Position numbers and translations under genes: made by a program. From assembly GCA_050999295.1 (NCBI GenBank), contig JBPCPI010000089.1:4533-68532 (forward strand): DNA of 64,000 nt. The letters run 5' to 3'. This document shows, piece by piece, positions 9,039 through 25,525 of this stretch (positions are counted from its first letter, which is position 1; each line of letters opens with the position of its first letter). The notes under the pieces were generated by a model, which was not told where the DNA came from, searched no databases, and saw only the letters and a program-made list of their open reading frames with translations. Source of the stretch: Geodermatophilaceae bacterium (lineage in GTDB: Bacteria; Actinomycetota; Actinomycetes; Mycobacteriales; Geodermatophilaceae).

Positions 9039-9044
9039 ACCCAA

Positions 9045-9641: not shown

Positions 9642-9664
9642 GGTGGGCAGAGATTACGCGCCCG

Positions 9665-11304
9665 TAGCTACTTCGACCTGAAATAGTCGGTCGACTGAAT
9701 GTGGGGCACCCCCGAAGGTGGGTGCTTTGGTCGTTCTGATCTTCAGATTCCGGTCGATCAGCTGGCCAGCGCACCGATCTTGACAAGATTGTGCGCGAGG
9801 ACCGCCTGTCCGGTCCAGATCCGGGCTCCTTCGGTGCCGTCCAGCCGGGTGCGATCCCATCCGTATCCTCGTTTGAGGTAGCTGATCCGTCCTTCGCTGC
9901 CGGTTCGCCACTTCACGGTCTTTCGGAACGCGGGTCGGTGCTCTTGGGCCTGTCTGGCCTTACCGGGCTTGCCTTTGCGGGGGATGACGACGCTGCGAAC
10001 GCCGAGATCGTGCAGGTCGTCCTCGACCCGGCTCTCGCCGTAGCCCCGGTCGGCGGTGACGGTGCGGGGCTTGCGGCCGGTCCGCTTGATCACGCGTTCG
10101 ACGGCCGGTGCGAGTTGCGGCGCGTCCGGCGGGTTGCCTTGGGTCACGGTGTGGTCGAGCACGACCCCGTCGTCGTTGTCGAGGACCTGCGCCTTGTAGC
10201 CGAACTCGACCGGCTTGCCGAGTCTGCCTTTGGCGATCGGACGGGCGTCGGGCTCGTGCAGGCTGACCCGCCGGGTCGCCCCATCCGGAGTGATCCCGGC
10301 TACCCGTTGCCTGGTCTGCGCGGCGATCCGGCGGGTTGCATCGAGCAGCTTCGCCAGGTCGTCGACTGCGCGGCGGAGCCGGCCCCGGCGTCGACCCGCG
10401 GCCGCGTCCCGGCCGCCGACCGCGGCAAGGCCGGCGGCCTTCGCCTGCGCACGGCGTAGCGCCCGCCGGGCGTTGGCCAGCAGCCGCTCGGCCTCGGTGG
10501 CCGCCCGCTCGGCAAGCTGGGCGAGTTCACCGGTGATCCGCTGCACCCTGCGCTGCGCCTCGTCCCGGCCCTGCGCGGCTCGCAGCCGAAGCTTCGCGGC
10601 GATCCCGTGCGCCCGCTTGCCCGCTGACCGACTGCGGTCCCGCAGTCGGGTCCGGGTCGCGCCACCGGCAGCCTGAACTCGCCGGCCCGGTCACGGCGAT
10701 CCGCCAAATCGCCTTGGCCAACAGGCCCGAGTCCGTCGGATAGGCCACGTCCGCCGGGACCACCGTGGTGTCCGCGCGCAGCCGCGACGTGCGCAGCAGC
10801 TTCGCCTCGGCGGCCTTGGCCAGCAGCGCCTCGTTGCACCCATCCACCGCCGCGGTGCCACACCGAGTGGTCAGCTTCATCAGCGTCGTCGGATGCGGCA
10901 CCGTGGCCCCGAGTGGGATCCGGCAGAACAGCCGCCACGTGATCGAGTCGCTGACCTCACGACACAACGACTCATATCCCAGCCGGTAGCGGAACTTCAG
11001 AAACATCATCCGAAGGTAGGTCTCCACCGGCGTCGACGGGCGGCCCATCCGAGCATCAAAGAACCGCACGAACGGCCGAAAGAACGCCGGATCATCCAGC
11101 AGGACATCGACCCGAGCCAGCTCCCCGGGCAACACCAGCAACTCCGCCGGCAGGACCGACTCCCACAACGAGCGTTGATCGCCTACGGTACGAAACACGA
11201 TGGCCTCGATCCCTTCTAGCCCAATGGTTCGAGGCCATTCTCTCGATCAACACCGCCCCGATCAGTGACCGCCACGCGGCCACTTTTTCAGGTCGAAGTA
11301 GCTA
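9665..11304 (-). mobile_element. IS element, IS5/IS1182-type DDE transposase, perfect 19-bp terminal inverted repeats
   Basis: TAGCTACTTCGACCTGAAA at 9665-9683 is the exact reverse complement of 11286-11304. The transposase coding sequence lies between them. Confidence 0.8.
9758..11198 (-). pseudogene. IS transposase (DUF772 N-terminus plus DDE C-terminus) interrupted by a 1-nt frameshift near 10684-10690
   Basis: After ...LLAKAIWRIAVTG, ORF1 (10527-11198) becomes Arg/Gly-rich nonsense. The ORF2 frame (9758-10546) reads back through ...PGRRVQAAGGATRTRLRDRSRSAGKRAHGIAAKLRLRAAQGRDEAQRRVQRITGEL to a TGA right at the GGGCCGG run. Confidence 0.8.
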
Positions 11305-11477
11305 ATGAGGCGGATAACTGCCCGATCTCGCGTCTCGGTGGCGGCCAAACCGGCCTCTATCCCCCGGTCGCTATGGGACAATTACCGAAAGAGCCGACCG
11401 TGGTTTGCTCGCTGGGTCATTCATGCGGTCGGCAGCTGACTACGCGGTGTCTGGGGCAATACTTGGCAAGGAGGACC

Positions 11478-12227
11478 GTGACCGATCCACTGGTGCAACC
11501 GCGTCCTGATGGACAGAACCCCGCCGACTACACCGACGACGTGGTTTCGGCGGACTTGGTCCGCCTCGTGCGTGACCTGGGTCCGGGTGGCCGGCTGCCG
11601 GGTGAACGCGACCTAGCGATCCAGCTAGGGGTCAGCCGGACGGCACTGCGCGACCGGCTTCAACTTCTCGATGGACTTGGTGTGCTGCGCCGTACGACCG
11701 GTTCCGGCACCTATGTCCAGACATTGCAGCCCACCGGACTCGCGCTTGCCCTGAACGTCGCCATAAGCGTCTCTCAGCTCTCCACCGAGGCGCTGCACTC
11801 GGTTCGAATCGCGCTGGAACGGCAAGCGGCCGCCGAGGCAGCTCTGGCCGGTGACTACGTCCTGATGGCCTACATGCGAAAGGCCATCCACACGATCGAT
11901 GTCGCGAGCGATGACGCAGATGTCGACGATGCGGACTTCCACTTCCACGACGCGCTCCTTCGCGCCGCCGGCAACCCAGCGCTCAGCTTCTTCGCCGACG
12001 CACTCTCGGGTGTGCTCAAGCGGGCGCTGAGCCAGCGGCGCGCTGAAATGCGACTCCACGTTGGTGACCATGAGGTGATGGTCAATGTGCATCAGGCAAT
12101 CTATGAGGCTGTGCTGTCAGGGGACCCGGCAGCAGCGATGGCAGCGACTGACAATCACTTCGAGACGTTCGAACACTTTGCCGGGGGTGGGCACTACCGA
12201 ACCGCGCTACCCCCGCGAGGACGCTGA
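11478..12227 (+). CDS. GntR/FadR family transcriptional regulator (paralog 1)
   Basis: AAGGAGG precedes GTG 11478. wHTH block GERDLAIQLGVSRTALRDRLQLLDGLGVLRR plus an FCD-type helical C-terminus. The 3' end overlaps the convergent carrier-protein gene by 21 nt. Confidence 0.85.
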   Translation: MTDPLVQPRPDGQNPADYTDDVVSADLVRLVRDLGPGGRLPGERDLAIQLGVSRTALRDRLQLLDGLGVLRRTTGSGTYVQTLQPTGLALALNVAISVSQLSTEALHSVRIALERQAAAEAALAGDYVLMAYMRKAIHTIDVASDDADVDDADFHFHDALLRAAGNPALSFFADALSGVLKRALSQRRAEMRLHVGDHEVMVNVHQAIYEAVLSGDPAAAMAATDNHFETFEHFAGGGHYRTALPPRGR

Positions 12228-12467
12228 TTCCTTCGGCTGCAAGAAGTGGACCTCAATGGCGTCCAGGGTCCGGAATTGGTCGACACTGAGTTCATCTGCT
12301 GGGATGTCCCTGGCGACGAGGGACTCCAGCAACAAGATGAACTCCATGAAGCTGAGTGAGTCGATAAGTCGGTTCTCGATCAAGTCGAGATCCCGGGGTA
12401 TGTCCTCGAGATCGTTGTTCTTCATCTGCAGCCAGTCGATCACGGGCTTGAGGTCTTCCGACATCAC
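12207..12467 (-). CDS. acyl/aminoacyl carrier protein (86 aa)
   Basis: Four-helix carrier pattern with phosphopantetheine-Ser motif LIDSLSFMEF. The start overlaps the PPTase stop. About 54% GC by hand count of 12241-12420. Confidence 0.85.
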   Translation of the reverse strand: MMSEDLKPVIDWLQMKNNDLEDIPRDLDLIENRLIDSLSFMEFILLLESLVARDIPADELSVDQFRTLDAIEVHFLQPKESASSRG

Positions 12468-12928
12468 TGATCGCTCCTATTCAGGTCTTGGGACATTCCG
12501 ACGGCGACCGCGACCGCGTACGCGTCCTCATGCGTCATGCTCAGCGTGATGTCACCTACGCCCCGCTGACGGGCAAGCTCTTCGGCCCGTCCGTGCAGGG
12601 TCACGACGCAGGACCCTCCCGCCGTGCGTCCGATTTCGACGTCTTTCCAGGGTGGCGCCGCTGTCGTCGGCTGTAGGAGCTTGAACACGGCCTCCTTGGC
12701 TGCGAAGCGTGCGGCGAAATGTCGCGCCTGTGCCCCCGACAGAGGGGGAGCCGATTCGATCTCAGTCCGCGTGAACACCCGGCTCGCGAACCGCTCGCCC
12801 AGCCGCGCCACCACGTCGGCCATTCGGAGCACGGACACGATGTCTACCCCTACGACTGGACGTGGCGGCGGTGTGCTCGAACCCCTTGGCAGGCCCGGCG
12901 GCCGCGACGATTCTGCTGACCCGGTCAT
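12464..12928 (-). CDS. acpS: holo-[acyl-carrier-protein] synthase (AcpS-type 4'-phosphopantetheinyl transferase)
   Basis: VGVDIVSV..., FAAKEAVFKLL, WKDVEI...LSMTHEDAYAVAVAV. ATGA overlap with the upstream gene. Confidence 0.85.
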   Translation of the reverse strand: MTGSAESSRPPGLPRGSSTPPPRPVVGVDIVSVLRMADVVARLGERFASRVFTRTEIESAPPLSGAQARHFAARFAAKEAVFKLLQPTTAAPPWKDVEIGRTAGGSCVVTLHGRAEELARQRGVGDITLSMTHEDAYAVAVAVGMSQDLNRSDQ

Positions 12929-13953
12929 GAACGCATCGGCGACAACGTTGCGTCGTACTCAGCTCTGAGCCGGCCGACGATGTCCTTGGCGGGCGCGAGC
13001 CGAGTCACGCGCTCGCATGAGGTCCCGCAGTACATGGCCATCAGATCGATCCGCCCTTCGGTACGAGCAGTGGGCACCGCTGCGCTGTACCGAGGCACAG
13101 GTAACCGGCGACCCTCCACATCCGTCGTTGCGATGAATTGAGCGGCCTCACGGTTGCGCGCCTGGGTAGTCGCGTTCTGAAGCACCCGATGCGGGCGGTG
13201 CGGCCATCCGATGTCGAATGCTTCGGTGATCACTGTGTCACCGTCCCCGGCGTCCAGCACGCGTTGCTTGTAGTCCGGATGGGCGCGTGACTCGCGGGCC
13301 GGGATGAAAAGCGTGCCCGCCATGGCCCCATCGGCGCCCTCGGTCAGTGCCGCAGCCAGGTCGACCCCGGTCGCGATCCCGCCCGCCACGACGAGCACGG
13401 CCAGTGGGTGCTGGGAGCGAACTTCGGTGAGCAGTTCTGTCGAGGAAGTCGTGCCGAGATGGTGACCGCCTGCTTCGCAGCCTTGGAGAACGAGCGCGTC
13501 AGCGCCGAGCACGAGCGCTGCAGCCGCGTCCTGGGGTGTGCCGACCTGAACGACGAGATGCCGCTGGGCGCTCTTGACCAGTTCGCCGAGGTCGCTGTCT
13601 GGCAGCCCGAAAGTCGTCACGAACCCAGACTCGGGCAAATCCTCCAGGGCGGCGACGACCTGCTCACATGCGGCCGCATGGCCGCTGACCTCAGGGATGA
13701 CGTTGATCCCGAACGGGCGGTCGCACTGAGCCGCTGTTTGTCGGACAAGTCGGCGGATCGATTCGGCCCGCTCCTTGTACAACGCCAGGATGCCGCCGGC
13801 GCCGGAGTTCGAAACGCCGGCCGCGAGTTCCGGTCCCGCCACGCCACCCATCCCCGCCTGCAGTAGCGGCAGCGTCAGACCGAGGAGGTCGGTGAGGCGG
13901 GTGACGAGGGCATTTCCCCTCGGCATCATCACGTTGGCGTCATGAGCAGTCAT
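12925..13953 (-). CDS. nitronate monooxygenase / FabK-like FMN enzyme (NMO family)
   Basis: LPLLQAGMGGVAGPELAAGVSNSGAGGILA, GCEAGGH and VVAGGIATG motifs. Confidence 0.8.
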   Translation of the reverse strand: MTAHDANVMMPRGNALVTRLTDLLGLTLPLLQAGMGGVAGPELAAGVSNSGAGGILALYKERAESIRRLVRQTAAQCDRPFGINVIPEVSGHAAACEQVVAALEDLPESGFVTTFGLPDSDLGELVKSAQRHLVVQVGTPQDAAAALVLGADALVLQGCEAGGHHLGTTSSTELLTEVRSQHPLAVLVVAGGIATGVDLAAALTEGADGAMAGTLFIPARESRAHPDYKQRVLDAGDGDTVITEAFDIGWPHRPHRVLQNATTQARNREAAQFIATTDVEGRRLPVPRYSAAVPTARTEGRIDLMAMYCGTSCERVTRLAPAKDIVGRLRAEYDATLSPMRS

Positions 13954-14995
13954 CGTCGTCAGCAGGCTTTCGGGCGATGACGGCGCTGCGGTCGCCGGTC
14001 GTCGATCGACAGTCGACGACGGAGAATCCGGCCTCCTGCAACATGTCGCCGAGCTCGGCCACCGACCAGCACTTGCCGGGTGTGGAGTGCATGAGGAGCA
14101 CTGAGTATTCGGCCACCGAGCGCGGGCCGGTCTTGCGTCCGTCGATGTGTGCGTCGTGATCGACTAACCATCCTCCGGGCGGGAGTGCCGCGAAGGAGGA
14201 CGCGATCAGATGCCGCACGTGTTCCTGCCCCCAGTCATGGAGAACGTGCGAGAACAGGTGCAGGTCATAGCCTTCAGGCAGGGGGTCTGTGAACATGTCA
14301 CCGGCGATCACGTCGACTCGGTCGGCATACCCACGATCTGCCAGCAGCTGCCGGGCGGCTTGGTCGACTGGCGGGCATTCGAAGACCGCCGCCCGCATGT
14401 CCGGCATCCGGTCCAGCAGGGCGCAGGCGTAGATGCCCGAGCCGCCTCCGACATCGAGCACCCGACCGGCGCCGGCCGTACCGTCGAGAGCCACAGCCAG
14501 GGCCGGACCGAGGAACCTCCCCCGTGCGTCCATGGCCGCGGTGATCCGCTGGGCGAACGCCGGCTCGATGAGCCGCTCGGACCAGTCCTGTCTAGCCTCT
14601 GCGCTCGCCCAGGATGCGGGCCTTCCCGTGCGCAGAACTTGGAGTAGCTCGAGGCACGCCGGGCGTTCTCGTAGCGAGGCGTAGTAGGCGCGAAGATCCC
14701 ATGGGGAAGTGGCCACGAGATGGTCTGCGGCCAACTGCGTGAGGCGCAAACTGTCGGCTGCGCCGCGCTGGAGCAGACCCAGCGAGACGAGGTAGGTGGT
14801 CATCACGTCGAAGGCTCGCGCATCGAGATCGAGTTGTTGGCAGATCTCCCCGCTGCGAGCCTGCGGGTTGCCGTCCAGCCACGTGAACAGATCAAGCTCT
14901 GCTACTGCCACGATCAGCAGATCAGCGGCGTAGATGCCGTCACGTAACCGGTAGAGGACGTGCGGATCAGTCGGCTGGTGGCCCGGGGTGATCAC
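13940..14995 (-). CDS. class I SAM-dependent O-methyltransferase (dimerisation domain plus Methyltransf_2)
   Basis: N-terminal dimerisation helix pattern, SAM motif VLDVGGGSGIYA, LFSHVLHDW. Confidence 0.85.
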   Translation of the reverse strand: MITPGHQPTDPHVLYRLRDGIYAADLLIVAVAELDLFTWLDGNPQARSGEICQQLDLDARAFDVMTTYLVSLGLLQRGAADSLRLTQLAADHLVATSPWDLRAYYASLRERPACLELLQVLRTGRPASWASAEARQDWSERLIEPAFAQRITAAMDARGRFLGPALAVALDGTAGAGRVLDVGGGSGIYACALLDRMPDMRAAVFECPPVDQAARQLLADRGYADRVDVIAGDMFTDPLPEGYDLHLFSHVLHDWGQEHVRHLIASSFAALPPGGWLVDHDAHIDGRKTGPRSVAEYSVLLMHSTPGKCWSVAELGDMLQEAGFSVVDCRSTTGDRSAVIARKPADDDDCS

Positions 14996-15993
14996 GAGGC
15001 ACGCGGCTTGGCCGCCACCAACACCGTCGAAACGTTTCCGCCGATAGTGAAGGTCGTCGGTTCCTCGAACCCCACCTCACGAAGCAGGGCGGAGGTTTCC
15101 CCGATCGTGTAGTCCCCGCCGCCCTCCCACAAGATCATCGAGGAGAGGTGATGCAGCGCAGCAAAGGGTGGGCTGACCCGGTCCTCGCCCAGAAAGTTGC
15201 CGTTGAGGATGACGCGACCGCCGGGCTCGAGGGCGGCGTAGGCGCGCTCGAGAAGCAGGCGTCGCCTCTCGTCGGTCTCGGCGTGGAACATGTTGGACAG
15301 CAGTACGCCAGCGAGCCCGTCGCCATAAGCCGAAGTGGCGTAGTCGCGGGCGACGGCCACGACCCGGTCTGCCATGCCGAGTTCGGAGATGACCTTGTTG
15401 GCGATCGGAACTGTGTCCGGAATATCGAAGATCTGGGCCTGCAGCTGCGGATGTCGCCGGCACAGGGCCATGGAGTACGCGCCACATCCCCCACCGAGGT
15501 CGACGAGTGTTCCCACTAGCGGTGGATCGATGCCGTCGGCCAGCTCGTCGGCCAGCGGCACGGCGTACCGGTAGAAACCAATCTCGAGATCCCGCAACTT
15601 GGCTGGGTCCGTGCTCATTCCGGAGTCGCCGACCGCTACCGGACCACCTTTACGGACCAGCTCGGTCAGCTGCGCCCAGGACCGCCCCCACTCCCCCATC
15701 GTGCGTACCCATCCGGTCAGACTCTCGTCCGAATCGTCGGCAAGGAATCGGCGAGCTGTCTGAGTGACGGAGAAGTGATCCTTGTTCCGCGTGAGCAATC
15801 GCATGGCCACGGCCGCGTTCAGTAGCGCGTCGGTTGCTGCCGTGTCCAGTTGTAGGCGGCCCGCCACGTCCTCGGCGGTGAGTGGACTCTCGAGAAGGGT
15901 GTCCACAACTCGCAACTCGGCGAGGGTGTAGAGGACTTCGGCCTGCCAGGTACCGACCGCCAGCTGCGCGATGTGCCGCATGCCCAGTTCCAT
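14992..15993 (-). CDS. class I SAM-dependent O-methyltransferase (second copy, same fold)
   Basis: LVDLGGGCGAYS SAM motif and a COMT/CrtF-like layout. 4-nt overlap with the next gene. Confidence 0.85.
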   Translation of the reverse strand: MELGMRHIAQLAVGTWQAEVLYTLAELRVVDTLLESPLTAEDVAGRLQLDTAATDALLNAAVAMRLLTRNKDHFSVTQTARRFLADDSDESLTGWVRTMGEWGRSWAQLTELVRKGGPVAVGDSGMSTDPAKLRDLEIGFYRYAVPLADELADGIDPPLVGTLVDLGGGCGAYSMALCRRHPQLQAQIFDIPDTVPIANKVISELGMADRVVAVARDYATSAYGDGLAGVLLSNMFHAETDERRRLLLERAYAALEPGGRVILNGNFLGEDRVSPPFAALHHLSSMILWEGGGDYTIGETSALLREVGFEEPTTFTIGGNVSTVLVAAKPRAS

Positions 15994-16014
15994 GATCTAC
16001 CTACCCATCAACGG

Positions 16015-17973
16015 TCAGGACACAAGAGAGGGGGCTTGGCTGACAACCTCTCGCTCCATGCGTCCGACGAAGTACGCGCTCTCCTCGTGATTGGTCGTCG
16101 AGACGAAATTGGAGAAACCGACCTTGTAGTAGAAGGCGCTCTCGACCGGGGCTGCCTGCTCGGGGGCGGGTGTCTCCCCGGCCTTCAAGGCAGCGATCAA
16201 CGCCGGGACATCCGCGGTCAGCTTGATGGGCCTGCGCCGGTAGAACTGCTCGTTGGCGATGTCGACAACCTCGAGATCATCAGCGTCGGTCTCGTTGGAC
16301 AGGTTGCAGATAGGCAACGTCAGCAGGTCATATGCGAAGACGTCGGCGAGTAGCGGACGCACCTTTTCCGGCAACAGCGGGTCGATCGCCTCACGCCACC
16401 AGCGAGCCAATACGGCCTTGCCGTCGGGGTTGCCGTGCAGGAAGACCAGGGCCGGTCCGACCGCGCTGGACTCACCGGATGCCTTGCTCGCGATCTCCCG
16501 AAGGGGCGCGGACGCGCTGTCGGTCTGCTTGTCCACCCAGTCGCCGAGGTTCAGGAGAACTTGGGATTGCTCCATACCACCCAAGATCCGCAACGGCGTC
16601 CAGATGTTGCGCAATACCAGGTTCTCCGCGATCACCCGCGCCCAGAACAGGAAGCGATGCATCTGTCGGTTGTCCTCGAGGGACATGGAGTCGTGTGCCA
16701 GCACGTATTCGAAATCGTCGTTGTCACCACGAATGGTGATGAAGCCGTAGTCCTTCTTCTTCTCCGAGTAGTCGGTGTTCGGTAACAGGAGCAACGGATA
16801 GGCGGCAATCCGCGACACATGATGGGAGAGCCGGTCATAGCCCTCCAAGAAGGACCGGACGGTCTCCCCAGGCGACCCCCAGATGATTTCGGCGTAACAG
16901 TCGAGTCCCTCGCCTTCCAGCCATTCGACCAGGTCAGTCCAGTCGTTGACCTTCATGTTCTTCCGGTTCATCCTGTCGAGTGCATCGCCGGAAAGGGTCT
17001 GTAGTGCGAGTGTGAAGGAGCTGCGCAGCCCGGCTCGCTTCATGTCGCGCACGATGTTGTAGAAGACTTTGGACTTGTTCTTCGCCCACGAGGTCTCGAG
17101 AGTCTTGGGATAGCCGTATTGTTCCTTGACTTCGATCAGATCTTGTACGAACTCCACATCGATGGGCAACATCCCGAAGTTGGCATCGCAGAGAACGATG
17201 GTCTCGACCTTGAGTTGGGCCATGAGTTCGAGTTCGGAACGGAGTCTCGCACGAGAGAAGGCGCGAACACGCTGGCCGACGGCGCCGCCCCAGAAACAGA
17301 ACGAACACTTGTAGGGACATCCGCGGTTGGTCTCCATGAGGGCAACGTCGTACGGAAAGGCGCCGTTCTCATCCGTCAGCCGGATTGCCCCGGTGAGGAA
17401 CGGGGACGGAATGACGTCCAGATCCTCGATCCTGGGTCGTTCCTCGGTGGTTGTGATCGCCCCGGAATCGTCCTTGAAGGCGATACCCGTAATCGCGCCC
17501 AGATGACCGGGTTTCGTGCCGTCGAGGAAGGCATTCAACAGGTCGGCAAAGATGAACTCGCCCTCTCCGTTGACGATGACATCCACCTCCGGGAACATCG
17601 GAAAAACACGGGCTGCCTGGTGGGCAACATGCGTTCCTCCCATGACCACCCACCCATCAGGGTTGAGCTGCTTGAACGTCTCGGCCAGGGCGGCGAAGGT
17701 TCGGGAGTTCCACCCTGCGACGGAGAAGGCCAGGATGTCCGGAGTACCGGCCTGGAAGAGATCGTTCGCCATGTCCGAGAGCGTCAACCCGCCCCGATAG
17801 TTGAAGATCTCGATGTTCATCTCCGCAGCGATGCGGGTGTCAGCAAGAGCGGTGGCCTTCACGTAGCCAGCGGCCAGGGGCATGGATTCCATGGGCATGT
17901 CCCACACGCCTTGTTGCACAAGCCACGCACTGCGGCGCTTCTCCGGTGCGGGTGGGTACAACTCGAGTGTCAT
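16015..17973 (-). CDS. B12-binding-domain radical SAM enzyme (class B)
   Basis: N-terminal Rossmann-like cobalamin domain, then NRGCPYKCSFCFWG (CxxxCxxC). 652 aa. ATGA overlap with the upstream gene. About 45% GC in sampled line 17101-17160. Confidence 0.85.
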   Translation of the reverse strand: MTLELYPPAPEKRRSAWLVQQGVWDMPMESMPLAAGYVKATALADTRIAAEMNIEIFNYRGGLTLSDMANDLFQAGTPDILAFSVAGWNSRTFAALAETFKQLNPDGWVVMGGTHVAHQAARVFPMFPEVDVIVNGEGEFIFADLLNAFLDGTKPGHLGAITGIAFKDDSGAITTTEERPRIEDLDVIPSPFLTGAIRLTDENGAFPYDVALMETNRGCPYKCSFCFWGGAVGQRVRAFSRARLRSELELMAQLKVETIVLCDANFGMLPIDVEFVQDLIEVKEQYGYPKTLETSWAKNKSKVFYNIVRDMKRAGLRSSFTLALQTLSGDALDRMNRKNMKVNDWTDLVEWLEGEGLDCYAEIIWGSPGETVRSFLEGYDRLSHHVSRIAAYPLLLLPNTDYSEKKKDYGFITIRGDNDDFEYVLAHDSMSLEDNRQMHRFLFWARVIAENLVLRNIWTPLRILGGMEQSQVLLNLGDWVDKQTDSASAPLREIASKASGESSAVGPALVFLHGNPDGKAVLARWWREAIDPLLPEKVRPLLADVFAYDLLTLPICNLSNETDADDLEVVDIANEQFYRRRPIKLTADVPALIAALKAGETPAPEQAAPVESAFYYKVGFSNFVSTTNHEESAYFVGRMEREVVSQAPSLVS

Positions 17974-18923
17974 GACTCACTGCCAATCTGTCGGGACGTC
18001 GGATCTCGACGTTCCGCTCGCTCGGTGTTGGGTGAATGGGCCCGGACGACGTCGCCGGCAGCAATCAGGTCACCGCCGAAGGTTTCTGACAACGCGTAGA
18101 TCCATCGCTCGAGACCGAATGCAACGCAACTGGTGAACGCACTGGCACCGCGTTGCGTGATCGAGCAGCGGTCACCGAAGAAATTGCGGTGGAAGTTGAG
18201 CGAGGCAATCGCGCAATCTGTACCGAAGACGTACTCCCACTTCACCGGGTCCATCTTCTGCATGAGCGCTCGGGGGCCGCTGGGGCGAAAGAATGGATCC
18301 GTTGCCGTCTCCTCCTTGAGCAGGAGGCCGATATCGGCTGCGAAACCTGTCACCCGCTGGCGAAAATGGTCCAGGTGGGCCAACGCTGCGTCCATACCCC
18401 CGATGAACACCACCTCGCGCATATGGAAATTCCACAGGCGCTTCAGACTGTGATGCTCCTCTTCGTTTCGGTAGCAACTCGCTTTAGTGGTGACCAGGAG
18501 ATCGGCGTCGAGCCTCGTATCCTGAAGATCGAAATAGACCGGGTAACAGGCCGCAGAGGGCAGCATGAATCGCACTTCCTCGAGGTGTCCTGGCGGAAGC
18601 GAGACCGGTTGCAAGCACTGGTCCGCGTACCCGCCGAGCGAAGCGGAACTGAGCCGCGATACCGCAGATCCCAGATGCGGGAAGTTCTTGAAGTAGTCAA
18701 TGCTTTCGAGGCTGTCAACCGCGAGAACGCCCGGATAGCTGACCTCGATCGCCCCCTGCTCGGCGGCCCATCCTCGAAAGGCGCCGTCGAGTTGACGCAC
18801 CAACGCAGTCGCTTTCGGTCCTATCGTTGCGCGCCCGTAGCTGGTGTTCCACGGCCTGGACGATGGCTCCACCGTAATGCCGGTCCCGGAACTGCGTGGC
18901 GAGGACAGCATGTGTGAGTTCAC
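17970..18923 (-). CDS. class II aminoacyl-tRNA-synthetase catalytic-core homolog without tRNA-binding domain (amino acid:[carrier protein] ligase type)
   Basis: 317 aa. Motif-2-like ASCYRNEEEHHSLKRLWNFHMREVVFIG and motif-3-like SCVAFGLERW. Cys/Glu/Cys candidates for the Zn site of atypical SerRS-like enzymes. No N-terminal coiled coil or anticodon domain. Confidence 0.7.
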   Translation of the reverse strand: MNSHMLSSPRSSGTGITVEPSSRPWNTSYGRATIGPKATALVRQLDGAFRGWAAEQGAIEVSYPGVLAVDSLESIDYFKNFPHLGSAVSRLSSASLGGYADQCLQPVSLPPGHLEEVRFMLPSAACYPVYFDLQDTRLDADLLVTTKASCYRNEEEHHSLKRLWNFHMREVVFIGGMDAALAHLDHFRQRVTGFAADIGLLLKEETATDPFFRPSGPRALMQKMDPVKWEYVFGTDCAIASLNFHRNFFGDRCSITQRGASAFTSCVAFGLERWIYALSETFGGDLIAAGDVVRAHSPNTERAERRDPTSRQIGSES

Positions 18924-19001
18924 TCCAGTTGTACATCGACTGGGCTGACAGGAATAAGCAATTGAGTCCTGGTTCTGTGCCCGGCACCCCGGGGCGCCAG
19001 G

Positions 19002-19865
19002 TCAAGCCATGACGCCGATCCTTTTGTAGAACGCGACCGTGCTCGCCACGACTTTGTCCGTAGCCTGCCGCCGGCCGGGATCTGCCAGGAGTCGCTCCCG
19101 AAAGGCGAGTGGCTCCTCGATTCCAGCATCTCGATAGACTCTTGGCTCATACAGGCCGCGCACGGATGCCTCGATGTATCGAGGCACGTAGGCCTTCGCC
19201 CGTTCGATCTCAGCCGGACTGCCCTCGTCGAGCAGGCGAAGAAAGAGGATCTTCACCAGTTGGCAGCCGAAAGCGATATGGCGGGATTCGTCCTGGTGGT
19301 GTATTCGGTTTATCGCCTGGATGGTCGGGTGCAGGGCCTTGTCCGATCCCATTCGTGCGTTGAAATAATCAACGATTCGCTCGAAGATCAAGATTCGGCT
19401 GAATACCAGGAAACTCGCCACCAGCGGGGACTCTTCATCCTCGAAGACGATCTTCCGGTCAGGATAGATCTTTCCGCCGTACCGTAGGCAGAATTCCGCG
19501 AAGAACCACATGTGCTCGTTCTCCTCACCGATGAAATGGTGGAAGAACTGAGTAGGAATCTCATAGTGCGGCGTATGGATCCGGTGCATCACTTCAATCA
19601 ACAGCTCGCGGATGCCGTGCACATTCAGACTGTAGAAATGAATGCTCTCCCATTTCGACAGCGCCAGTAGTTGTTCCTGGGTGAGCTCCTGCTCGGCTTC
19701 CGTACCGGCCACGGTCATCAGGTCCCGGCTCATCCACAGGCCATCGGTCTCGATGCGCTCTGGCCAGTCGAAGGTCGCGTACGGGTTGTAGTAGTCCTCG
19801 ATCGAAGCACGACTGAGCCGATTCACGACATCGGTGAACTGGGCCTCGTACTCCTTGACAGACAC
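19002..19865 (-). CDS. AurF-like ferritin-fold diiron oxygenase
   Basis: Two ExxH motifs (GEENEHMWFF, HHQDESRHIAFG) plus extra Glu/His helices, and EDYYNPYATFDW at the N-terminus. GTG 19865 (GAAGAGG 8 nt upstream) is preferred because the track's TTG 19952 is the TTGACA -35 box and the operator would otherwise fall inside the CDS. Confidence 0.65.
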   Translation of the reverse strand: MSVKEYEAQFTDVVNRLSRASIEDYYNPYATFDWPERIETDGLWMSRDLMTVAGTEAEQELTQEQLLALSKWESIHFYSLNVHGIRELLIEVMHRIHTPHYEIPTQFFHHFIGEENEHMWFFAEFCLRYGGKIYPDRKIVFEDEESPLVASFLVFSRILIFERIVDYFNARMGSDKALHPTIQAINRIHHQDESRHIAFGCQLVKILFLRLLDEGSPAEIERAKAYVPRYIEASVRGLYEPRVYRDAGIEEPLAFRERLLADPGRRQATDKVVASTVAFYKRIGVMA

Positions 19866-19901
19866 GCTGGTTGCCTCTTCAACATCGGTATGGCCAGTGG
19901 C

Positions 19902-19920
19902 CGTATTGGTAGGACCGCTT
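19902..19920 (-). promoter_or_regulatory. 19-bp operator AAGCGGTCCTACCAATACG, copy facing the diiron/ligase operon
   Basis: Exact reverse complement of 20079-20097. Core GGTCCTACCA. Confidence 0.7.
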
Positions 19921-20078
19921 CTACCTTGGCCCAGCTGCCCTGTGATTGTCAAGGCGCCGATGATCTAGAGCCGAGCCGCGGTCCCCGGCCGTCGGGGGCG
20001 AGGAGCCCTGGTAGGCCTGATGTCTGGCCGGTCCGACGGGCGGCCTTGACACGGCAGCTCCATCTGGACGAGGCTGGC

Positions 20079-20097
20079 AAGCGGTCCTACCAATACG
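20079..20097 (+). promoter_or_regulatory. 19-bp operator AAGCGGTCCTACCAATACG, copy facing the P450 operon
   Basis: Identical to the minus-strand site at 19902-19920. Each is preceded by a TTGACA hexamer 26-27 nt upstream. Confidence 0.7.
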
Positions 20098-20177
20098 ACT
20101 ACTGGCCTTACCGTTCCCGGAAGGGGGCAGCCGACGCTGTCTGTCCAGGAGAACGATTCCCAACCTGCTGCGGTGTG

Positions 20178-21500
20178 ATGCGTTCCGGCCAGAGACTCGA
20201 AGGAGTTGCGTTGCCTCAATCTCAACCACACGCCACTAGCACCGCCGTCACTGAAGAGAACGTCCCGGCGGTCATCTCCGCCGATACCCGCGAAGTTGCG
20301 CTCGCTTTCAATTTGTTCGACCTGCCGCCGGGGTACTTCGCTGCGCCGCATGGATGGTTCCGAGCACTGCGAAATCATGACCCGGTCCATTCGAATGGCG
20401 ACGGGACGATCCTGCTCACGAGATATGCAGACGTTCGGACGATATGGCGGGATGCGACGTCGTCGGTGGACAAAGCTGACCTGTTCGAACGCAAGTTCGG
20501 TGCGGGGCCACTCCTGGAGCACCACACGACCTCGATGCTCTTCCAGAACCCACCCAATCACGAGCGGTTGCGTTCGGTGGTCATCCCGTTCTTCTCACCG
20601 AAGTCCCTGGAACGGTTACGCGAATTCATAAACAATAAGGTGGACCGCCTCTTGGACGAGATCCAGGAGCGCGGAGAACTGGATTTCGTCATCGATTTCG
20701 CGGCAAAGATTCCTATCGCGCTCATCACCCATATCCTGGGGGTGCCAGACGAGGACGGGCCGATGCTGCGCGGATTGGGTCTGCGTGTGCTCTACCCGCT
20801 CAACCCCCGGGTTGCCGACGAGGCCATCAAGTCGGGACACGAGGCCGCCGCCGAATTCGCCGAATACATGCACGAGCACATCGTCCGGGCCCGCGCCCGC
20901 GGGCTCTCCGGGGACCCCGAGACCATCGTCGAGGCGCTGGTGGCCGCCGAGCAGGGCAGCGGGGCGATCTCAGAGGCTGAGATCGTCCACAACTGCCTCC
21001 TGGTCCTCAATGGCGGGCACACGACCACGACAGACCTTCTGGGCGTGGGGACGCACACCTTGCTCGGCCTGCCGGACGACTACCGCGCACTGGCCGAGAT
21101 GCCGGAGCGATCCGTGGCCGGGGCGATCGAGGAATTGCTGCGGTTCGTATCCCCGCTTCAGCTGCAGTCGCGCCGCACCACGCGGAAGGTCGACCTGCCC
21201 TCTGGCCAGAGCGTTCCTGCCGACACCGAGGTCTGGGTCTGCCCTGCCTCGGCCAACCGTGACGACCGCGTTGTCGACAACCCAGAGACGCTGGACCTGG
21301 CCCGCAAACCCAACGCGCATGTCGCTTTCGGACTCGGCGTCCACGTCTGTCTGGGGCGTCCGCTGGCCCGGATGGAGACGGTCAGCGCGTTCCCCAAACT
21401 CGCGCGACGCTTTCCCGAACTCCACCGCGCCGGTCCCCCGGTCTTCAACCAGAACGCTCGGTTCCGTGGGCTGGCAAGCCTTCCCGTACGTGTGTCATGA
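20178..21500 (+). CDS. cytochrome P450
   Basis: I-helix GGHTTT, EELLRF, heme loop FGLGVHVCLGRPLA. Start is ATG 20178, or TTG 20211 (AGGAG 5 nt upstream). The 609-aa track ORF is over-extended antisense into the diiron gene. Confidence 0.9.
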   Translation: MRSGQRLEGVALPQSQPHATSTAVTEENVPAVISADTREVALAFNLFDLPPGYFAAPHGWFRALRNHDPVHSNGDGTILLTRYADVRTIWRDATSSVDKADLFERKFGAGPLLEHHTTSMLFQNPPNHERLRSVVIPFFSPKSLERLREFINNKVDRLLDEIQERGELDFVIDFAAKIPIALITHILGVPDEDGPMLRGLGLRVLYPLNPRVADEAIKSGHEAAAEFAEYMHEHIVRARARGLSGDPETIVEALVAAEQGSGAISEAEIVHNCLLVLNGGHTTTTDLLGVGTHTLLGLPDDYRALAEMPERSVAGAIEELLRFVSPLQLQSRRTTRKVDLPSGQSVPADTEVWVCPASANRDDRVVDNPETLDLARKPNAHVAFGLGVHVCLGRPLARMETVSAFPKLARRFPELHRAGPPVFNQNARFRGLASLPVRVS

Positions 21501-22768
21501 GCGACAGCGGCAAGGCTCCGCGCTGCCTGATCGCCGGCGGTGGGCAGGCCGCCGCGCAGGTGGCCATCAGTCTCCGCCACGTCGGCTACGCCGGAGAAAT
21601 CACGGTGATCGGCGATGAGCCGACGGCGCCCTACCAACGGCCGCCGCTGAGCAAGGCCTACCTGAAGGGCGAGATATCTGCCGAGCAGCTCCGCTTCCGT
21701 CCAGCAGCCCTGTACGAAAAGCTGCGCGTCGAGCTACGTACAGGTCAGCGCGTCGTGACCGTTGACCGCGACAAACGCGAGATCGAGCTGGACGGCGGCG
21801 AGCACGTCCCCTTCGATTGGCTCGTCCTGAGCACTGGCGCCCGCCCGCGACCGCTGTCCGTGGCCGGAGCTGAGATCCCTCGACTACTCGCCTTGCGCAC
21901 TCTTGCCGATGCCGACCGGCTGCGCGACATGCTGACCCCTGGGCGTCGGTTGCTGATCGTTGGCGCCGGTTACTTGGGGCTCGAGGTAGCGGCTGTTGCG
22001 GCCCGGCTCGGCGTTGCGGTGACCGTACTCGAGGCAGGCGAGCGGGTACTGGCGCGAGTCGCCGGATGCGAGGTGGCCGAGTTCCTGGCTGCCGTACATG
22101 CGGATGCCGGTGTGAAGATCGTGATTAGAACAACGGTCCGCGAGCTCCTCCGCGGTCCAGACGGCGCGGCCACCGGGGTTGTCTGCTCCGACGGCCGAAG
22201 CTGGGCTGCCGACCTCGTGCTGGTCGCCGTCGGCGTGGCCCCGGAAGTGGAACTCGCCGAGGCGGCCGGCTTGCCCTGTGACAACGGGATCATGGTGGAC
22301 GGGCAGGCCCGGACCAGGGACCCGCGGATCTATGCCGCAGGCGACTGTACGAATCAGCTCGACGCCGCATCCGGCCGGCGGCTGAGGCTGGAATCGGTGA
22401 ACAACGCAGTCGAACAAGGCAAGACCGTGGCGGCTGCGATTACCGGCTCATCACCCCGTGCTGCGCAGGTCCCCTGCTTCTGGTCGGATCAATATCACGT
22501 GAAGCTGCAGACCGTGGGCGTCCTTGCCGGACATGCCGCCAGTGTCGTGCGCGGCGACCCGGCGCACGGCTCTTTCGCGGTGCTCTACCTCGACGATGGC
22601 GGCCACGTGGTCGCCGTCGACGCGGTCAACGCACCACGTGAGTTCTCCTTCGCGCGATCCCTGCTCGGAAGGCGGCCAGTCGGCGAGCCACTGCCCTCGC
22701 CGGATGCCTGGCCGCGGGTCAAATCGGCGACGCTTCCCACGTTGCTGGGGAAAACGGCGGTGCTCTGA
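21497..22768 (+). CDS. FAD-dependent NAD(P)H:ferredoxin reductase (putidaredoxin-reductase type)
   Basis: LIAGGGQAA, YQRPPLSKAYL, IVGAGYLGLEVAA, AAGDC. ATGA overlap with the P450 stop. Confidence 0.9.
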   Translation: MSDSGKAPRCLIAGGGQAAAQVAISLRHVGYAGEITVIGDEPTAPYQRPPLSKAYLKGEISAEQLRFRPAALYEKLRVELRTGQRVVTVDRDKREIELDGGEHVPFDWLVLSTGARPRPLSVAGAEIPRLLALRTLADADRLRDMLTPGRRLLIVGAGYLGLEVAAVAARLGVAVTVLEAGERVLARVAGCEVAEFLAAVHADAGVKIVIRTTVRELLRGPDGAATGVVCSDGRSWAADLVLVAVGVAPEVELAEAAGLPCDNGIMVDGQARTRDPRIYAAGDCTNQLDAASGRRLRLESVNNAVEQGKTVAAAITGSSPRAAQVPCFWSDQYHVKLQTVGVLAGHAASVVRGDPAHGSFAVLYLDDGGHVVAVDAVNAPREFSFARSLLGRRPVGEPLPSPDAWPRVKSATLPTLLGKTAVL

Positions 22769-23088
22769 TGGCCACCATCACCTATGTCGAATTCGACGGC
22801 ACCGAGCACGTGATCGAGGTTGAGGACGGCCTGTCTGTCATGGAAGGCGCCGTCAACAATGCCATCCCCGGTATCGATGCAGATTGCGGCGGCGTCTGTT
22901 CGTGCGCCACCTGCCACGTGCATGTCCCGGTCGAGTGGCGAGACGTCCTGCCCGAGCGCGCCGAACCCGAACTGGACATGTTGGAGTTCGCCCCGGACCG
23001 TGACGAGGACAGCCGTCTGAGCTGTCAGCTGGTCGTGGATTCGCGGCTCGACGGAATGGTCGTGCGGTTACCGGAATCCCAGGGCTAG
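22768..23088 (+). CDS. [2Fe-2S] ferredoxin (adrenodoxin/putidaredoxin type)
   Basis: 106 aa with CGGVCSCATCHV plus a distal SCQ cysteine. The start overlaps the reductase stop. Confidence 0.9.
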   Translation: MATITYVEFDGTEHVIEVEDGLSVMEGAVNNAIPGIDADCGGVCSCATCHVHVPVEWRDVLPERAEPELDMLEFAPDRDEDSRLSCQLVVDSRLDGMVVRLPESQG

Positions 23089-23128
23089 GCCGCAGACACC
23101 TACTCCACGTGTTGATCATGGCTGGGGT

Positions 23129-23157
23129 TTGACCATCCTCGTGAGTGGTCCTACCAT
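23129..23157 (+). promoter_or_regulatory. promoter with embedded FadR-type operator TGGTCCTACCA (GntR paralog 2)
   Basis: TTGACC (23129-23134), 17-nt spacer, TACCAT (23152-23157). The palindrome TGGT-CCT-ACCA at 23146-23156 spans the -10 box. Confidence 0.6.
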
Positions 23158-23189
23158 TTCTCGAGGCGGTCGGACCTTCGGAGGTGCAT

Positions 23190-23987
23190 GTGGTGTCACC
23201 CGGATCCGACCTTTCTAGCCTCGTGGGCGACCACTACCGCTCGGACCCGGTGTCCGCCGGGCTCTCCGATGTGATTCGCTCTTTAGCCCCAGGAGATCGG
23301 CTGCTCGGCGAACGAGACCTCGCTGTCACACTCGGGGTGAGTCGCACGGCACTGCGTGACCGGTTGCGGTTGATGGAGGGCTTGGGAGTTCTGAGGCGCA
23401 CAACCGGCTCCGGCACCTTTGTGCAGGACCTTGATCCCACCGGCCTTGCGCTTGCCCTCGACATCGCGCTGTCCTCGTCGCGCATTCCGCTCTCGGCATT
23501 GCACACGGTGCGCACGGCAATCGAACGGCAGGCTGCCATCGAAGCTGCCGGCCAACAGGATCCCGTGCTGATCGCCCATATGCGGAAGGCGGTGGACACG
23601 ATTGCCGCGTCGACCGAGGACTCCGAAGTGGACAATGCGGACTTCCACTTTCATGACACTTTGCTACGGGCTTCCGGCAACCAGGCCCTCGCGTTCTTCG
23701 CCAGCGCTCTGGGCGGAGTGCTCCACAAGTCGCTTCACGAGCGACGCATCGAAATGCGCAAGATCGCCGGTGACCGCGAGGTCATGGCACGCGTTCATCG
23801 CGACATCTATGACGCGGTGGCCTCCGGAGATTCCGTGGCCGCCGCTGCTGCTGTCGAGGAGCACTTCGCCACATTCGACCGGTTGGTGCTCGCAGCCCCG
23901 AAATTGACCACACCTTCCCAACTGACCGTTACGAATTCCGGCTCTCGGAAGACCGGTGATCCCGGCGGCGCCTTGTCTCCTGACTGA
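23190..23987 (+). CDS. GntR/FadR family transcriptional regulator (paralog 2)
   Basis: GGAGG lies upstream of in-frame GTG 23190/23193. About 90% identical by eye to paralog 3. Same wHTH block GERDLAVTLGVSRTALRDRLRLMEGLGVLRR. Confidence 0.85.
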   Translation: MVSPGSDLSSLVGDHYRSDPVSAGLSDVIRSLAPGDRLLGERDLAVTLGVSRTALRDRLRLMEGLGVLRRTTGSGTFVQDLDPTGLALALDIALSSSRIPLSALHTVRTAIERQAAIEAAGQQDPVLIAHMRKAVDTIAASTEDSEVDNADFHFHDTLLRASGNQALAFFASALGGVLHKSLHERRIEMRKIAGDREVMARVHRDIYDAVASGDSVAAAAAVEEHFATFDRLVLAAPKLTTPSQLTVTNSGSRKTGDPGGALSPD

Positions 23988-24193
23988 CATTCACACGAAG
24001 TACGCCCCGCGCCGGTCTTCAGGAATGCCTACGACCGATCATCTATCCCTGTCCGATCAGGTCCCAAGATGAGGAGCGCAACGATGCCCGCGCCGTCGAC
24101 ATGCGGATCAAGTCCTTCACGTCAGTTCGAACGCGGCACCATCACTTTCGTTCCCGGCCAACACCGCCGGCCGCCCGATGCCCTGGCTGTCCG
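23988..24193 (+). pseudogene. relic of TRAP transporter genes (dctP start context plus two dctM fragments) left by internal deletions
   Basis: 24022-24086 matches 30481-30550, including GAGGAGCGCAACGATGC. GACATGCGGATCAAGTCCTTCA matches dctM at about 33188-33210. CATCAC(T/C)TTCGTTCCCGGCC matches about 33641-33662. Confidence 0.75.
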
Positions 24194-24703
24194 GTGAAAA
24201 CGGCCTCCGGAACCGGCCTTGTCCTCGTCCGCTGCGAGGCAAGTGAGGACGTCTTCGCCGGATTGTTGATGGTCTTCGACGATCTGGGCGTCGATGCTGC
24301 ATCGGTCAGCGGGATGGTGGGCAGCCTTCAGCGGGTGGAGTACGCGACAGCGGTGTGCGACCCCCGCGGGCGCCCTGGCTATAGCCGCAGCGTCATACGG
24401 ACTGGTCCCATCGAGATCGGGTCCGCACAGGGTCACCTGGGCCGGAATCCAGCCGGCCGACCTGAGCTGCATTTGCACGGGGTCTTCTTCACCGACGTCG
24501 GAACGGTGTTCGGCGGACACGTCGTCCAGGCCGAGGTCCTCGTCACCGTCGAGGTCGCCCTCATCCCCGATCGCGATGTCGGCTGGAGCAGGGACTACGT
24601 ACGAGTCAAAGGATCGGATCTGCTACCTGTCCTGCAACCGATCAACACGGAGGGTAACGCTAGTGCGCCGTTACTGAAGTGTTTTGACGGTTCGCTTTGG
24701 TGA
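24194..24703 (+). CDS. PPC (DUF296) domain protein, copy A (GTG start, altered 3' end)
   Basis: Near-identical to 33697-34167 (…ELHLHGVFFTDVGTVFGGHVVQAEVLVTVEV…). A 1-nt difference removes the original stop and reads into the IS630 remnant. Confidence 0.55.
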   Translation: MKTASGTGLVLVRCEASEDVFAGLLMVFDDLGVDAASVSGMVGSLQRVEYATAVCDPRGRPGYSRSVIRTGPIEIGSAQGHLGRNPAGRPELHLHGVFFTDVGTVFGGHVVQAEVLVTVEVALIPDRDVGWSRDYVRVKGSDLLPVLQPINTEGNASAPLLKCFDGSLW

Positions 24704-25205
24704 GGATCTGTTCTGCGGTCTTGGTCCAGACGAACGGGTGTGCTCGGTTGTTCCAGCCATCGATGAAGGCTCGGATCTTGGCGGTCAGTTCGGTCACCGA
24801 GCGAAAGGTGCCGCGGTGGATGGCTTGGCGTTCGATGATCCCGAACCAGACCTCGACCAGATTCATCCACGAGGCCGAGGTCGGGGTGAAGTGCACCCGG
24901 ATTCGCGGGTTGGCTTCGAGCCAGTCTCGGATCTCGACGCGTTTGTGGGCGGCGTAGTTGTCCATCACCAAGTGCAGTTCGACGTCGGGATGAAGTAGCA
25001 GAGCGGGAGGACGCTCAGCGACATGGCACCGACCGGAGCCAGGCGCACGCCCATTCCAGGGTCCGGATTGTTCGTCGTCTCGCGCGACGGTCGGCTGACC
25101 GAAGACGAGCGGTCTGCGATAGGCACTGTCGGCGAAACCGCCGCGAATGCGTGGCTGAAACACCAAGTACCAGCAGCTCCAGTGGCGCAGCGGGTTCGCC
25201 GCCAC
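24660..25205 (-). pseudogene. IS630-family transposase remnant (C-terminal DDE part only, 5' part degenerate)
   Basis: LHLVMDNYAAHKRVEIRDWLEANPRIRVHFTPTSASWMNLVEVWFGIIERQAI...FVWTK is typical of an IS630 C-terminus. The upstream about 75 aa do not form the N-terminal HTH. Confidence 0.75.
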
Positions 25206-25206
25206 A

Positions 25207-25525
25207 TTGATCGGCGACCCGGAAGTGTCAGACTCGCTCGGGTACGACTTCGAGGTCGTCTCTGGGAGGATGACGCTGATATTCGAAGTGAAGTCGGCGC
25301 GCGCGGAGCCCGCTGGTCTGCTCGAATTCGAGATGGGTGAGTCGGAGATTCGGACCGCCGCAGGCGAACGCTCGCAACGACCGCTACCGGATTCTGCTGA
25401 TCACCTCAGTTCTTGATCCGATCGAGCGCCGAATTCATGTTCTGCCCAATCCGTTCAGTGAGCGGGGCCGTGGTCAATACCGAGTCAACGGCCGTGGCCT
25501 GCGCTACCAGTGCGCTCCTGGCTAG
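25207..25525 (+). pseudogene. C-terminal fragment of a DUF3883-type (nuclease-fold) protein, truncated and frameshifted
   Basis: GYDFEVV...LIFEVKSA...EFEMGESEIRTA continues in another frame as NDRYRILLITSVLDP. There is no N-terminal part. Confidence 0.5.

Follow-up and report, generated by a model that had tools for sequence, protein, structure and literature searches.

A clade of tRNA-synthetase-derived ligases that probably loads carrier proteins for diiron oxygenases, and its rare operon variant in a Geodermatophilaceae bacterium

What does the catalytic core of a tRNA synthetase do in an operon of carrier-protein and tailoring genes? The question is raised by a 64,000-nucleotide stretch of Geodermatophilaceae DNA (assembly GCA_050999295.1, contig JBPCPI010000089.1, positions 4,533 to 68,532), here called the window, in which an initial annotation had proposed an amino acid:[carrier protein] ligase (an aa:CP ligase) in the open reading frame (ORF) 17970..18923 on the minus strand. 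In a 2022 review of aminoacyl-tRNA synthetases (aaRS), the biological role of aa:CP ligases is still listed as unknown. Judged by its sequence and a structure model, the gene encodes a tRNA-synthetase-derived enzyme predicted to load an amino acid onto a small carrier protein, and we regard it as reasonably probable that the clade to which this ligase belongs is the loading enzyme of a diiron N-oxygenase pathway.

Profile, sequence and structure searches place the ligase consistently. Pfam returned no match to it, and the NCBIfam model NF005479 (amino acid--[ACP] ligase; ACP, acyl carrier protein) matched at E 1.2e-34 with 119.7 bits. The models for methanogen-type seryl-tRNA synthetase (SerRS) scored 30 bits (PRK00960, cutoff 611) and 21 bits (TIGR00415, cutoff 490), at E-values of 1.9e-7 and 7.3e-5. 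A phmmer search of all PDB sequences found Bll0957 at E 4e-24 over residues 54-289, the sole other match being the M. kandleri type-2 SerRS at E 0.037. We modeled the ligase with AlphaFold2 using 28 relatives as input (mean pLDDT 86.7, pTM 0.83) and searched the PDB with Foldseek. Ranks 1-10 were all the B. japonicum Gly:[carrier protein] ligase Bll0957 (E ~1e-22, TM 0.71-0.83, identity 26-29%), followed at ranks 11-19 by methanogen-type SerRS catalytic domains (E 1e-17 to 1e-15, identity 15-18%), which align with the model over the catalytic domain alone (target-normalised TM 0.41-0.49). The first ~24 residues of the ligase are disordered and unconserved, the modeled core begins at residue 25, and there is no N-terminal tRNA-binding domain. 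These results bear out the proposed aa:CP ligase architecture, a truncated class II core of the atypical SerRS type without a tRNA-binding arm in a protein of 313-317 residues, and the profile and structure comparison that the initial annotation had suggested returned Bll0957 as best match rather than a different fold.

The active site can be read in some detail. In an alignment of 28 sequences, C126, C150, R152, E154, E170, C266 and R273 are invariant, with R152 and E154 belonging to motif 2 and R273 to motif 3. Residue counting in the phmmer alignment sets C126, E170 and C266 against C131, E176 and C279 of Bll0957, which we take to be its zinc ligands, assuming that the numbering of the PDB construct is the literature number plus 20, with which the cysteine offsets agree. 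The residues flanking these ligands are nearly the same in the two proteins (AACYP, C-x-R-x-E and T-x-CVAFG). We thus predict a C126/E170/C266 zinc triad in which E170 sits in 'FHMRE'. The Cys/Glu/Cys zinc site of the initial annotation stands but its choice of glutamate does not: E154 of 'CYRNE' is the motif-2 glutamate, whereas E170 aligns with the zinc glutamate of Bll0957, both residues being invariant.

The ORF measures 317 amino acids from its GTG start, and its translation contains every motif string quoted earlier (CYRNEEEHHSLKRLWNFHMREVVFIG, SCVAFGLERW, LPSAACYP and TSCVAFG). NCBI calls a shorter protein (P0001, from a Geodermatophilaceae metagenome-assembled genome) of 276 amino acids at 17970-18800, starting 41 codons 3' of the GTG. 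Across the 28 relatives G30, L45 and W52 are invariant in the N-terminal region, and the NCBI call removes a conserved block in which G30 is invariant and L31 nearly so; because conserved blocks lie upstream of it, this start is doubtful. The likeliest true start is an in-frame ATG at 18911 with GGAG 11 nt upstream, giving 313 amino acids, so that the 317-residue reading was essentially right. As had been stated, the GC content of the gene falls below that of the DNA around it, but the difference is modest: 60.5% compared with a window mean of 66.2%, at the 4th percentile of equal-sized windows.

Relatives of the ligase are widespread. A search at E <= 1e-3 gave 1323 protein clusters, mostly labelled 'hypothetical' or 'aminoacyl-tRNA ligase-related', and a scan of one genome per species confirmed at least 556 species with a relative. 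Those listed belong to many phyla and include members of Actinomycetota, Acidobacteriota, Elusimicrobiota, Eremiobacterota, Chloroflexota, Burkholderiales, Paenibacillus and alpha-proteobacteria, and the notion that such ligases are known from a few alpha-proteobacteria falls with this clade alone. Because its score lies below the family cutoff, its identity to the characterised enzymes is low and its gene neighborhood differs from theirs, the ligase is best placed, on sequence grounds, in a separate clade of the aa:CP ligase superfamily, distinct from the Bll0957/Atu2573 equivalog and presumably serving a different pathway.

We surveyed gene neighborhoods by tblastn of the window operon proteins against 87 loci, 71 of which extend 4 kb or more to either side of the ligase gene; counts below refer to partners within 5 kb of the ligase in these 71. 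A diiron oxygenase was present in 70 of the 71, almost always on the same strand and ~1 kb upstream, and a carrier homologue of ~80 amino acids likewise in 70. A nitronate monooxygenase (NMO) homologue accompanied 30 of the ligases, an AcpS-type 4'-phosphopantetheinyl transferase (PPTase) nine and an O-methyltransferase (OMT) five. Recurrent layouts include oxygenase, carrier and ligase alone; oxygenase, carrier, ligase, NMO and one or two OMTs (Ramlibacter, Burkholderiaceae, Eremiobacterota, Algihabitans, Tistrella pTM2); and oxygenase, ligase, PPTase and carrier. The window operon had been offered as the first pathway context for such a ligase. That claim did not survive: an oxygenase and a carrier each accompany the ligase in all but one of the 71 loci, and the route matches that of He & Ryan 2021, in which, as relayed in PMC9967187 and PMC12183544, carrier-bound glycine is converted by a diiron oxygenase to a nitronate that goes on to a methyltransferase. 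The near-invariable tie of a large ligase clade to an AurF-like oxygenase and a carrier gives these enzymes a concrete candidate role in the chemistry of N-oxygenation, one that can be put to the test.

Annotated plasmid and chromid records show the same association. In the NCBI annotation, pTM2 of Tistrella and two plasmids of Streptomyces have the oxygenase–ligase layout. Across the plasmid and chromid records, oxygenase homologues at 39-53% identity accompany the ligase, with a 'nitronate monooxygenase' also beside the pair in Tistrella, A. vitis and Streptomyces NBC_01431, and homologues at 37-44% identity accompany adenylation domains. Examples of the latter are Azospirillum, with an adenylation domain, ACP, methyltransferase, oxygenase and non-ribosomal peptide synthetase (NRPS) as well as polyketide synthase (PKS), and Nostoc, with the oxygenase beside an NRPS; by comparison with the cluster in PMC9967187, the Azospirillum layout may be read as enteromycin/akazaoxime-like. 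Since every NMO-containing cassette that we examined uses the ligase, the NMO cassettes of He & Ryan 2021 are likely to be loaded by the ligase clade found in the window.

Both near-invariable partners carry the residues expected of their families. The 86-residue carrier has no Pfam match, and phmmer relates it to solved peptidyl (PCP) and D-alanyl carrier proteins (PCP 2MY5, E 3.6e-4). A profile of eight orthologues matches 2MY5 at E 2.7e-9, and D36 and S37 are invariant ('DS(37)L'); the identification of the 12207-12467 product as a carrier protein is confirmed by this match and the invariant Ser37. In the cassette oxygenases E102, E144, H147, E191, H218, E222 and H225 are all invariant. Their profile reaches AurF (3chh) weakly in the PDB, at E ~0.1, with H218-x3-E222-x2-H225 aligned to 'LHLRDETAH' of AurF, the segment that holds the third histidine typical of N-oxygenases (ligand roles are listed in PMC12154687).

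Our comparisons show the fold, the motifs, the family assignments, how the operon is built and which genes occur together; from these we infer the chemical steps, the amino acid and the final product as follows. The PPTase would convert the carrier to its holo form at Ser37. The ligase would then adenylate an alpha-amino acid, most likely glycine, holding its amino group on the Cys126/Glu170/Cys266 zinc site, and pass the aminoacyl group to the phosphopantetheine thiol of the carrier. On the carrier, the AurF-like diiron oxygenase would oxidise the tethered amine to a nitro or nitronate species, and this intermediate would be O-methylated by one or both OMTs, oxidatively denitrified by the NMO-family flavoenzyme, or both. 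In the rare operon variant of the window, a KedN5-type cobalamin-dependent radical S-adenosylmethionine (SAM) enzyme (rSAM) would add one or more C-methyl groups, and the P450/ferredoxin system could provide further oxidation or supply electrons. The loaded amino acid is probably glycine, because the closest characterised relative is a Gly:[carrier protein] ligase with nearly the same residues around the zinc site.

Several observations weigh against this pathway. The ligase does not reach the equivalog cutoff of NF005479 (357 bits), so that transfer of function rests on ~29% identity, and the aa:CP ligases are reportedly not uniform: Mocibob is said to have found in 2010 and 2013 that Bll0957 prefers Gly and Atu2573, from Agrobacterium, Ala. 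Because the cassette oxygenase is so distant from AurF (profile E ~0.1), other outcomes of oxidation, including an oxime, a hydroxylamine or C-hydroxylation, are possible. FabK enoyl-ACP reductases and nitronate monooxygenases in the PDB score about equally against the NMO-family protein, and the closest annotated relative of the rSAM, 59% identical and encoded on a plasmid of Streptomyces sp. RerS4, has an aminotransferase on either side and no OMT, in a sugar-type context that is unrelated; the roles of these two enzymes are accordingly not fixed. The side-by-side occurrence of OMTs and NMO also misfits a simple either/or branch, and no thioesterase or condensation enzyme for product release is present.

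The alternative that survives best keeps the architecture and changes the substrate to alanine, serine or another small amino acid, leading for example to a 2-nitropropionyl or oxime product. The variation in specificity among known aa:CP ligases speaks for it, as does the low identity to Bll0957; yet the closest solved relative is glycine-specific, its zinc-flanking residues are nearly identical, and the motifs of the pocket do not vary even between cassettes whose tailoring genes differ widely, suggesting that a single, simple substrate is shared by all. Glycine is also the only published substrate of the carrier-dependent diiron oxygenase nitronate route as far as the accounts in PMC9967187 and PMC12183544 extend. 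We consider a non-glycine substrate a minority possibility.

Rather less likely, the cassette mainly generates nitrite (or a glyoxylyl thioester), and the OMTs, rSAM and P450 act on a different scaffold; the glycyl-S-carrier would be N-oxygenated, and nitrite would be set free by the NMO. Of all partners the NMO is conserved best (60-62% identical to its counterparts in Streptomyces-type cassettes), and 23 of the loci carry MOSC, aminotransferase, kinase and phosphatase genes that lack an evident nitronate role. In the same direction, the title of He & Ryan 2021 (Nat Chem 13:599) adds denitrification, and its abstract is said to describe oxidative denitrification by cryptic cassettes. However, the island in the window, which is bounded by insertion sequences (IS), contains no NRPS, PKS or sugar genes by Pfam annotation that could build another scaffold, and OMT1 travels with the cassette (in six loci the NMO is followed downstream by a full-length orthologue, 37-40% identical), which argues for action on the cassette's own intermediate.

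We rejected a divergent SerRS paralogue still acting on tRNA, as a resistance or auxiliary SerRS or a supplier of aminoacyl-tRNA, as very improbable: JGI annotates many relatives as 'seryl-tRNA synthetase' and the methanogen-type models do match weakly, but the protein has no tRNA-binding domain, aligns with SerRS structures over the catalytic domain alone, scores far below the model cutoffs and keeps a dedicated carrier in 70 of 71 loci, and Bll0957-type enzymes are reported not to aminoacylate tRNA.

Loading of a diiron N-oxygenase pathway thus remains our preferred reading of the ligase, and the window places it in a compact setting (Table 1), annotated by ORF choice guided by GC at third codon positions (GC3) and Pfam. 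Transcription runs through oxygenase, ligase, rSAM, OMT1, OMT2, NMO, PPTase and carrier. Four junctions overlap by 4 nt, including the ATGA in which the ligase stop codon overlaps the rSAM start, and a fifth by 14 nt, so the genes form a single operon. The ligase had been described as lying next to the carrier gene; the two share the operon, but the carrier gene is 5.5 kb downstream. Together with the P450 set and two GntR regulators, the operon makes up a ~13-kb island bracketed by IS/transposase remnants, consistent with horizontal acquisition.

Table 1. The ligase operon and the flanking genes and mobile-element remnants of its island, in window coordinates.
Feature	Coordinates	Strand	Basis or remark
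Amino acid:[carrier protein] ligase homologue	17970..18923	-	class II aaRS catalytic core without tRNA-binding domain
AurF-family (ferritin-like) diiron oxygenase, first operon gene	19002..19952	-	Pfam PF11583, E 8e-30
KedN5-family methylcobalamin-dependent radical SAM C-methyltransferase	16015..17973	-	NF033712; PF02310 B12-binding; PF04055 Radical_SAM
O-methyltransferase 1 (OMT1)	14992..15993	-	Methyltransf_2 and dimerisation domain
O-methyltransferase 2 (OMT2)	13940..14995	-	Methyltransf_2
NMO/FabK-family FMN enzyme	12925..13953	-	Pfam PF03060, E 1.6e-40
AcpS-type 4'-phosphopantetheinyl transferase (PPTase)	12464..12928	-	PF01648, E 2.8e-16; TIGR00556, 82 bits (cutoff 45)
Stand-alone carrier protein, 86 aa	12207..12467	-	PCP matches; phosphopantetheine serine Ser37 in 'IDSLS'
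Cytochrome P450, divergent from the operon	20178..21500	+	start approximate: ATG 20178, or TTG 20211 (GGAG 6 nt upstream)
Ferredoxin reductase	21497..22768	+	Pyr_redox_2 and Reductase_C
2Fe-2S ferredoxin	22768..23088	+	window annotation
GntR/FCD-family regulator, converging on the operon 3' end	11265..12227	+	
Second GntR/FCD-family regulator, 3' of the P450 set	23145..23987	+	a PCC-domain gene also follows the P450 set
Transposase remnants, low-coordinate island edge	9758..11198	-	DDE_Tnp_1, DUF772
DDE_3 transposase fragment, high-coordinate island edge	24660..25205	-	

The composition of the operon is uneven. Besides the ligase, the oxygenase (56.9%), carrier (55.9%) and rSAM (60.2%) genes fall well short of the window's mean GC, and those for NMO, PPTase and the two OMTs, at 65-67%, resemble the host; this mosaic may reflect assembly from parts of different origin. 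The GntR/FCD regulator at 11265-12227 and the carrier gene overlap by 21 bp at their 3' ends, and the long, unconserved-looking N-terminal 100 residues of the regulator suggest that its start is over-called. We rejected a 198-residue ORF at 19965-20561 on the minus strand, seemingly the first gene of the operon, as a shadow that the P450 gene casts on its antisense strand: the ORF matches no family, has no homologue near the ligase in the 71 loci, and its only match, in the metagenomic locus L001, is antisense to P450. A scan of positions 9000-26000 for glycine, SAM and B12 riboswitches gave no Rfam match at E <= 1, and a promoter and terminator scan found nothing above shuffled expectation.

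The tailoring genes set the window apart from most of the clade. Its two Methyltransf_2 OMTs and its NMO-family protein recur with the cassette and are, by family, candidate nitronate O-methyltransferases and monooxygenase; a second, OMT2-like methyltransferase follows OMT1 also in two other loci (L017 and L038). Within the 5-kb limit none of the 71 loci has a B12-rSAM, and among all loci surveyed the enzyme occurs in the window and L001 only. L001 is the only fully syntenic locus, including the divergent P450 and reductase, with identities to the window of 65% for the ligase, 79% for the rSAM, 68% for the P450 and 66% for the ferredoxin reductase. The rSAM itself belongs clearly to the KedN5 family, reaching NF033712 with 1001 bits against a cutoff of 700 bits.

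A product of the operon variant can be proposed by analogy. Extension of an alkoxy group by KedN5-type enzymes has been proposed for kedarcidin and cystobactamid. The product in the window may accordingly be an O-alkyl nitronate in which the rSAM has lengthened O-methyl to ethyl or isopropyl, or else a C-methylated nitro acid. A literature search by name found no papers on KedN5. We also considered whether KedN5-type rSAMs sit beside OMTs, as O-methyl extension would have it; the context of the closest annotated relative gives this no support, and we keep it as speculation. In Tistrella mobilis, one replicon (NC_017966, pTM2) carries a cassette of oxygenase, carrier, ligase, NMO and methyltransferase, and another, unannotated replicon (NC_017958) encodes a KedN5-family rSAM that is 51% identical to that of the window. 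Free of NRPS and PKS genes, the island is a tractable target that could yield a new small molecule of the nitro or nitronate type, and also a new substrate for a KedN5-type methylase.

Other loci show the ligase in settings of their own. An actinobacterial operon with no evident nitronate link accounts for 23 of the 71 loci (L002-L007, L010, L013, L015 and others). This conserved operon encodes, in order, a zinc-dependent alcohol dehydrogenase, a ROK kinase, an APH-family kinase, a 175-residue Dioxygenase_C protein, a class-III aminotransferase and an inositol-phosphatase, followed by the diiron oxygenase, the ligase, the NMO, the carrier and a protein with a MOSC domain; in Protofrankia, the dehydrogenase and the two kinases of an operon of this type are fused. 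The MOSC domain hints, from its family, at reduction of an N-hydroxylated compound. On a plasmid of Streptomyces sp. NBC_00335 (L088), oxygenase, carrier, ligase and PPTase lie inside a cluster of ketosynthase, chain-length factor and ACP genes (KS/CLF/ACP) with two AMP-binding enzymes. The embedding in this cluster, which resembles a type II PKS or fatty acid synthase, suggests that longer chains can be built from the N-oxygenated unit on the carrier.

More distant homologues occur with no diiron oxygenase nearby. On the Streptomyces clavuligerus plasmid pF1D18A (L089, 333-345 kb), a ligase of a deeper branch (38.5% identity) is followed by an 87-residue hypothetical protein and a PPTase, in the vicinity of a phytanoyl-CoA dioxygenase, a DUF6271 protein, a condensation-domain protein and an MFS transporter; this would be a different pathway context for an aa:CP-type ligase. 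A Bacillus thuringiensis plasmid (L091) encodes a 398-residue 'aminoacyl-tRNA ligase-related protein', ~30% identical to the window ligase, directly 3' of an ACP gene and with a gene of the formyltransferase family close by, and fourteen Bacillus plasmids carry such homologues.

Set against known systems, the ligase shares with methanogen-type SerRS (PDB 2CJ9, 3W3S) the fold of the catalytic domain and a zinc-dependent active site, but lacks the tRNA-binding domain. Its nearest counterparts are Bll0957 and Atu2573 (Mocibob et al. 2010, 2013; PDB 3MEY, 3MF1 and 4H2S). With these it has in common the class II core derived from atypical SerRS, the absence of a tRNA-binding domain, the predicted zinc site of Cys/Glu/Cys type, the arginines of motifs 2 and 3, a dedicated small carrier nearby and a Foldseek TM of ~0.8; it differs in sequence, at 26-29% identity and 119.7 of the 357 bits that NF005479 requires, and in neighborhood. 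In the canonical context of the Bll0957/Atu2573 type, ACP and acyl-CoA dehydrogenase go with the ligase, DUF1839 and GH2, whereas in the window clade the ligase is joined by a diiron oxygenase and a carrier, to which NMO and OMT may or may not be added. A rhizobial 'amino acid--[ACP] ligase' gene, 28% identical to the window ligase, indeed lies in an ACP/acyl-CoA dehydrogenase/DUF1839/GH2 context adjacent to nif genes with no diiron oxygenase, and a 2010 comparative-genomics paper noted a similar neighborhood for the Bll0957 type (PMC2922099).

The chemistry that we propose has its own precedents. Systems of the PvfB/HamC and AlmD types are alike in their described logic, in which an AurF-family enzyme N-oxygenates an aminoacyl thioester (PMC12154687); they differ in loading through the adenylation domain of a multidomain NRPS and in their products, which are pyrazine N-oxides, diazeniumdiolates or oximes. 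The glycine-nitronate pathways (He & Ryan 2021; enteromycin carboxamide) have a carrier-tethered amino acid, an AurF-like oxygenase and OMT and/or NMO, components whose counterparts, by family, all occur in the window operon. In the NRPS-type nitronate clusters (Azospirillum, Nostoc; Micromonospora, PMC9967187) the loader is an adenylation domain, whereas here it would be the aaRS-derived ligase. The logic of carrier-bound glycine, nitronate and subsequent methylation or denitrification is already published, at least in outline in the sources cited above, and our finding therefore extends a known pathway and founds none.

What is unusual in the window relative to these pathways is only the rare operon variant, which combines two OMTs with an NMO and adds a B12-rSAM of the KedN5 type, a PPTase inside the operon and a P450 set with ferredoxin reductase and ferredoxin, all in an IS-bounded island of lower GC. 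The aa:CP ligase and nitronate literatures appear unconnected, to judge by the 2022 aaRS review, in which the ligases still have no known role. It is conceivable, if doubtful, that the clade is uncharacterised as a loader for diiron N-oxygenation and that the rare operon makes an undescribed small molecule from one tethered glycine. If the clade is indeed uncharacterised in this role, the link between aa:CP ligases and N-oxygenation would be new.

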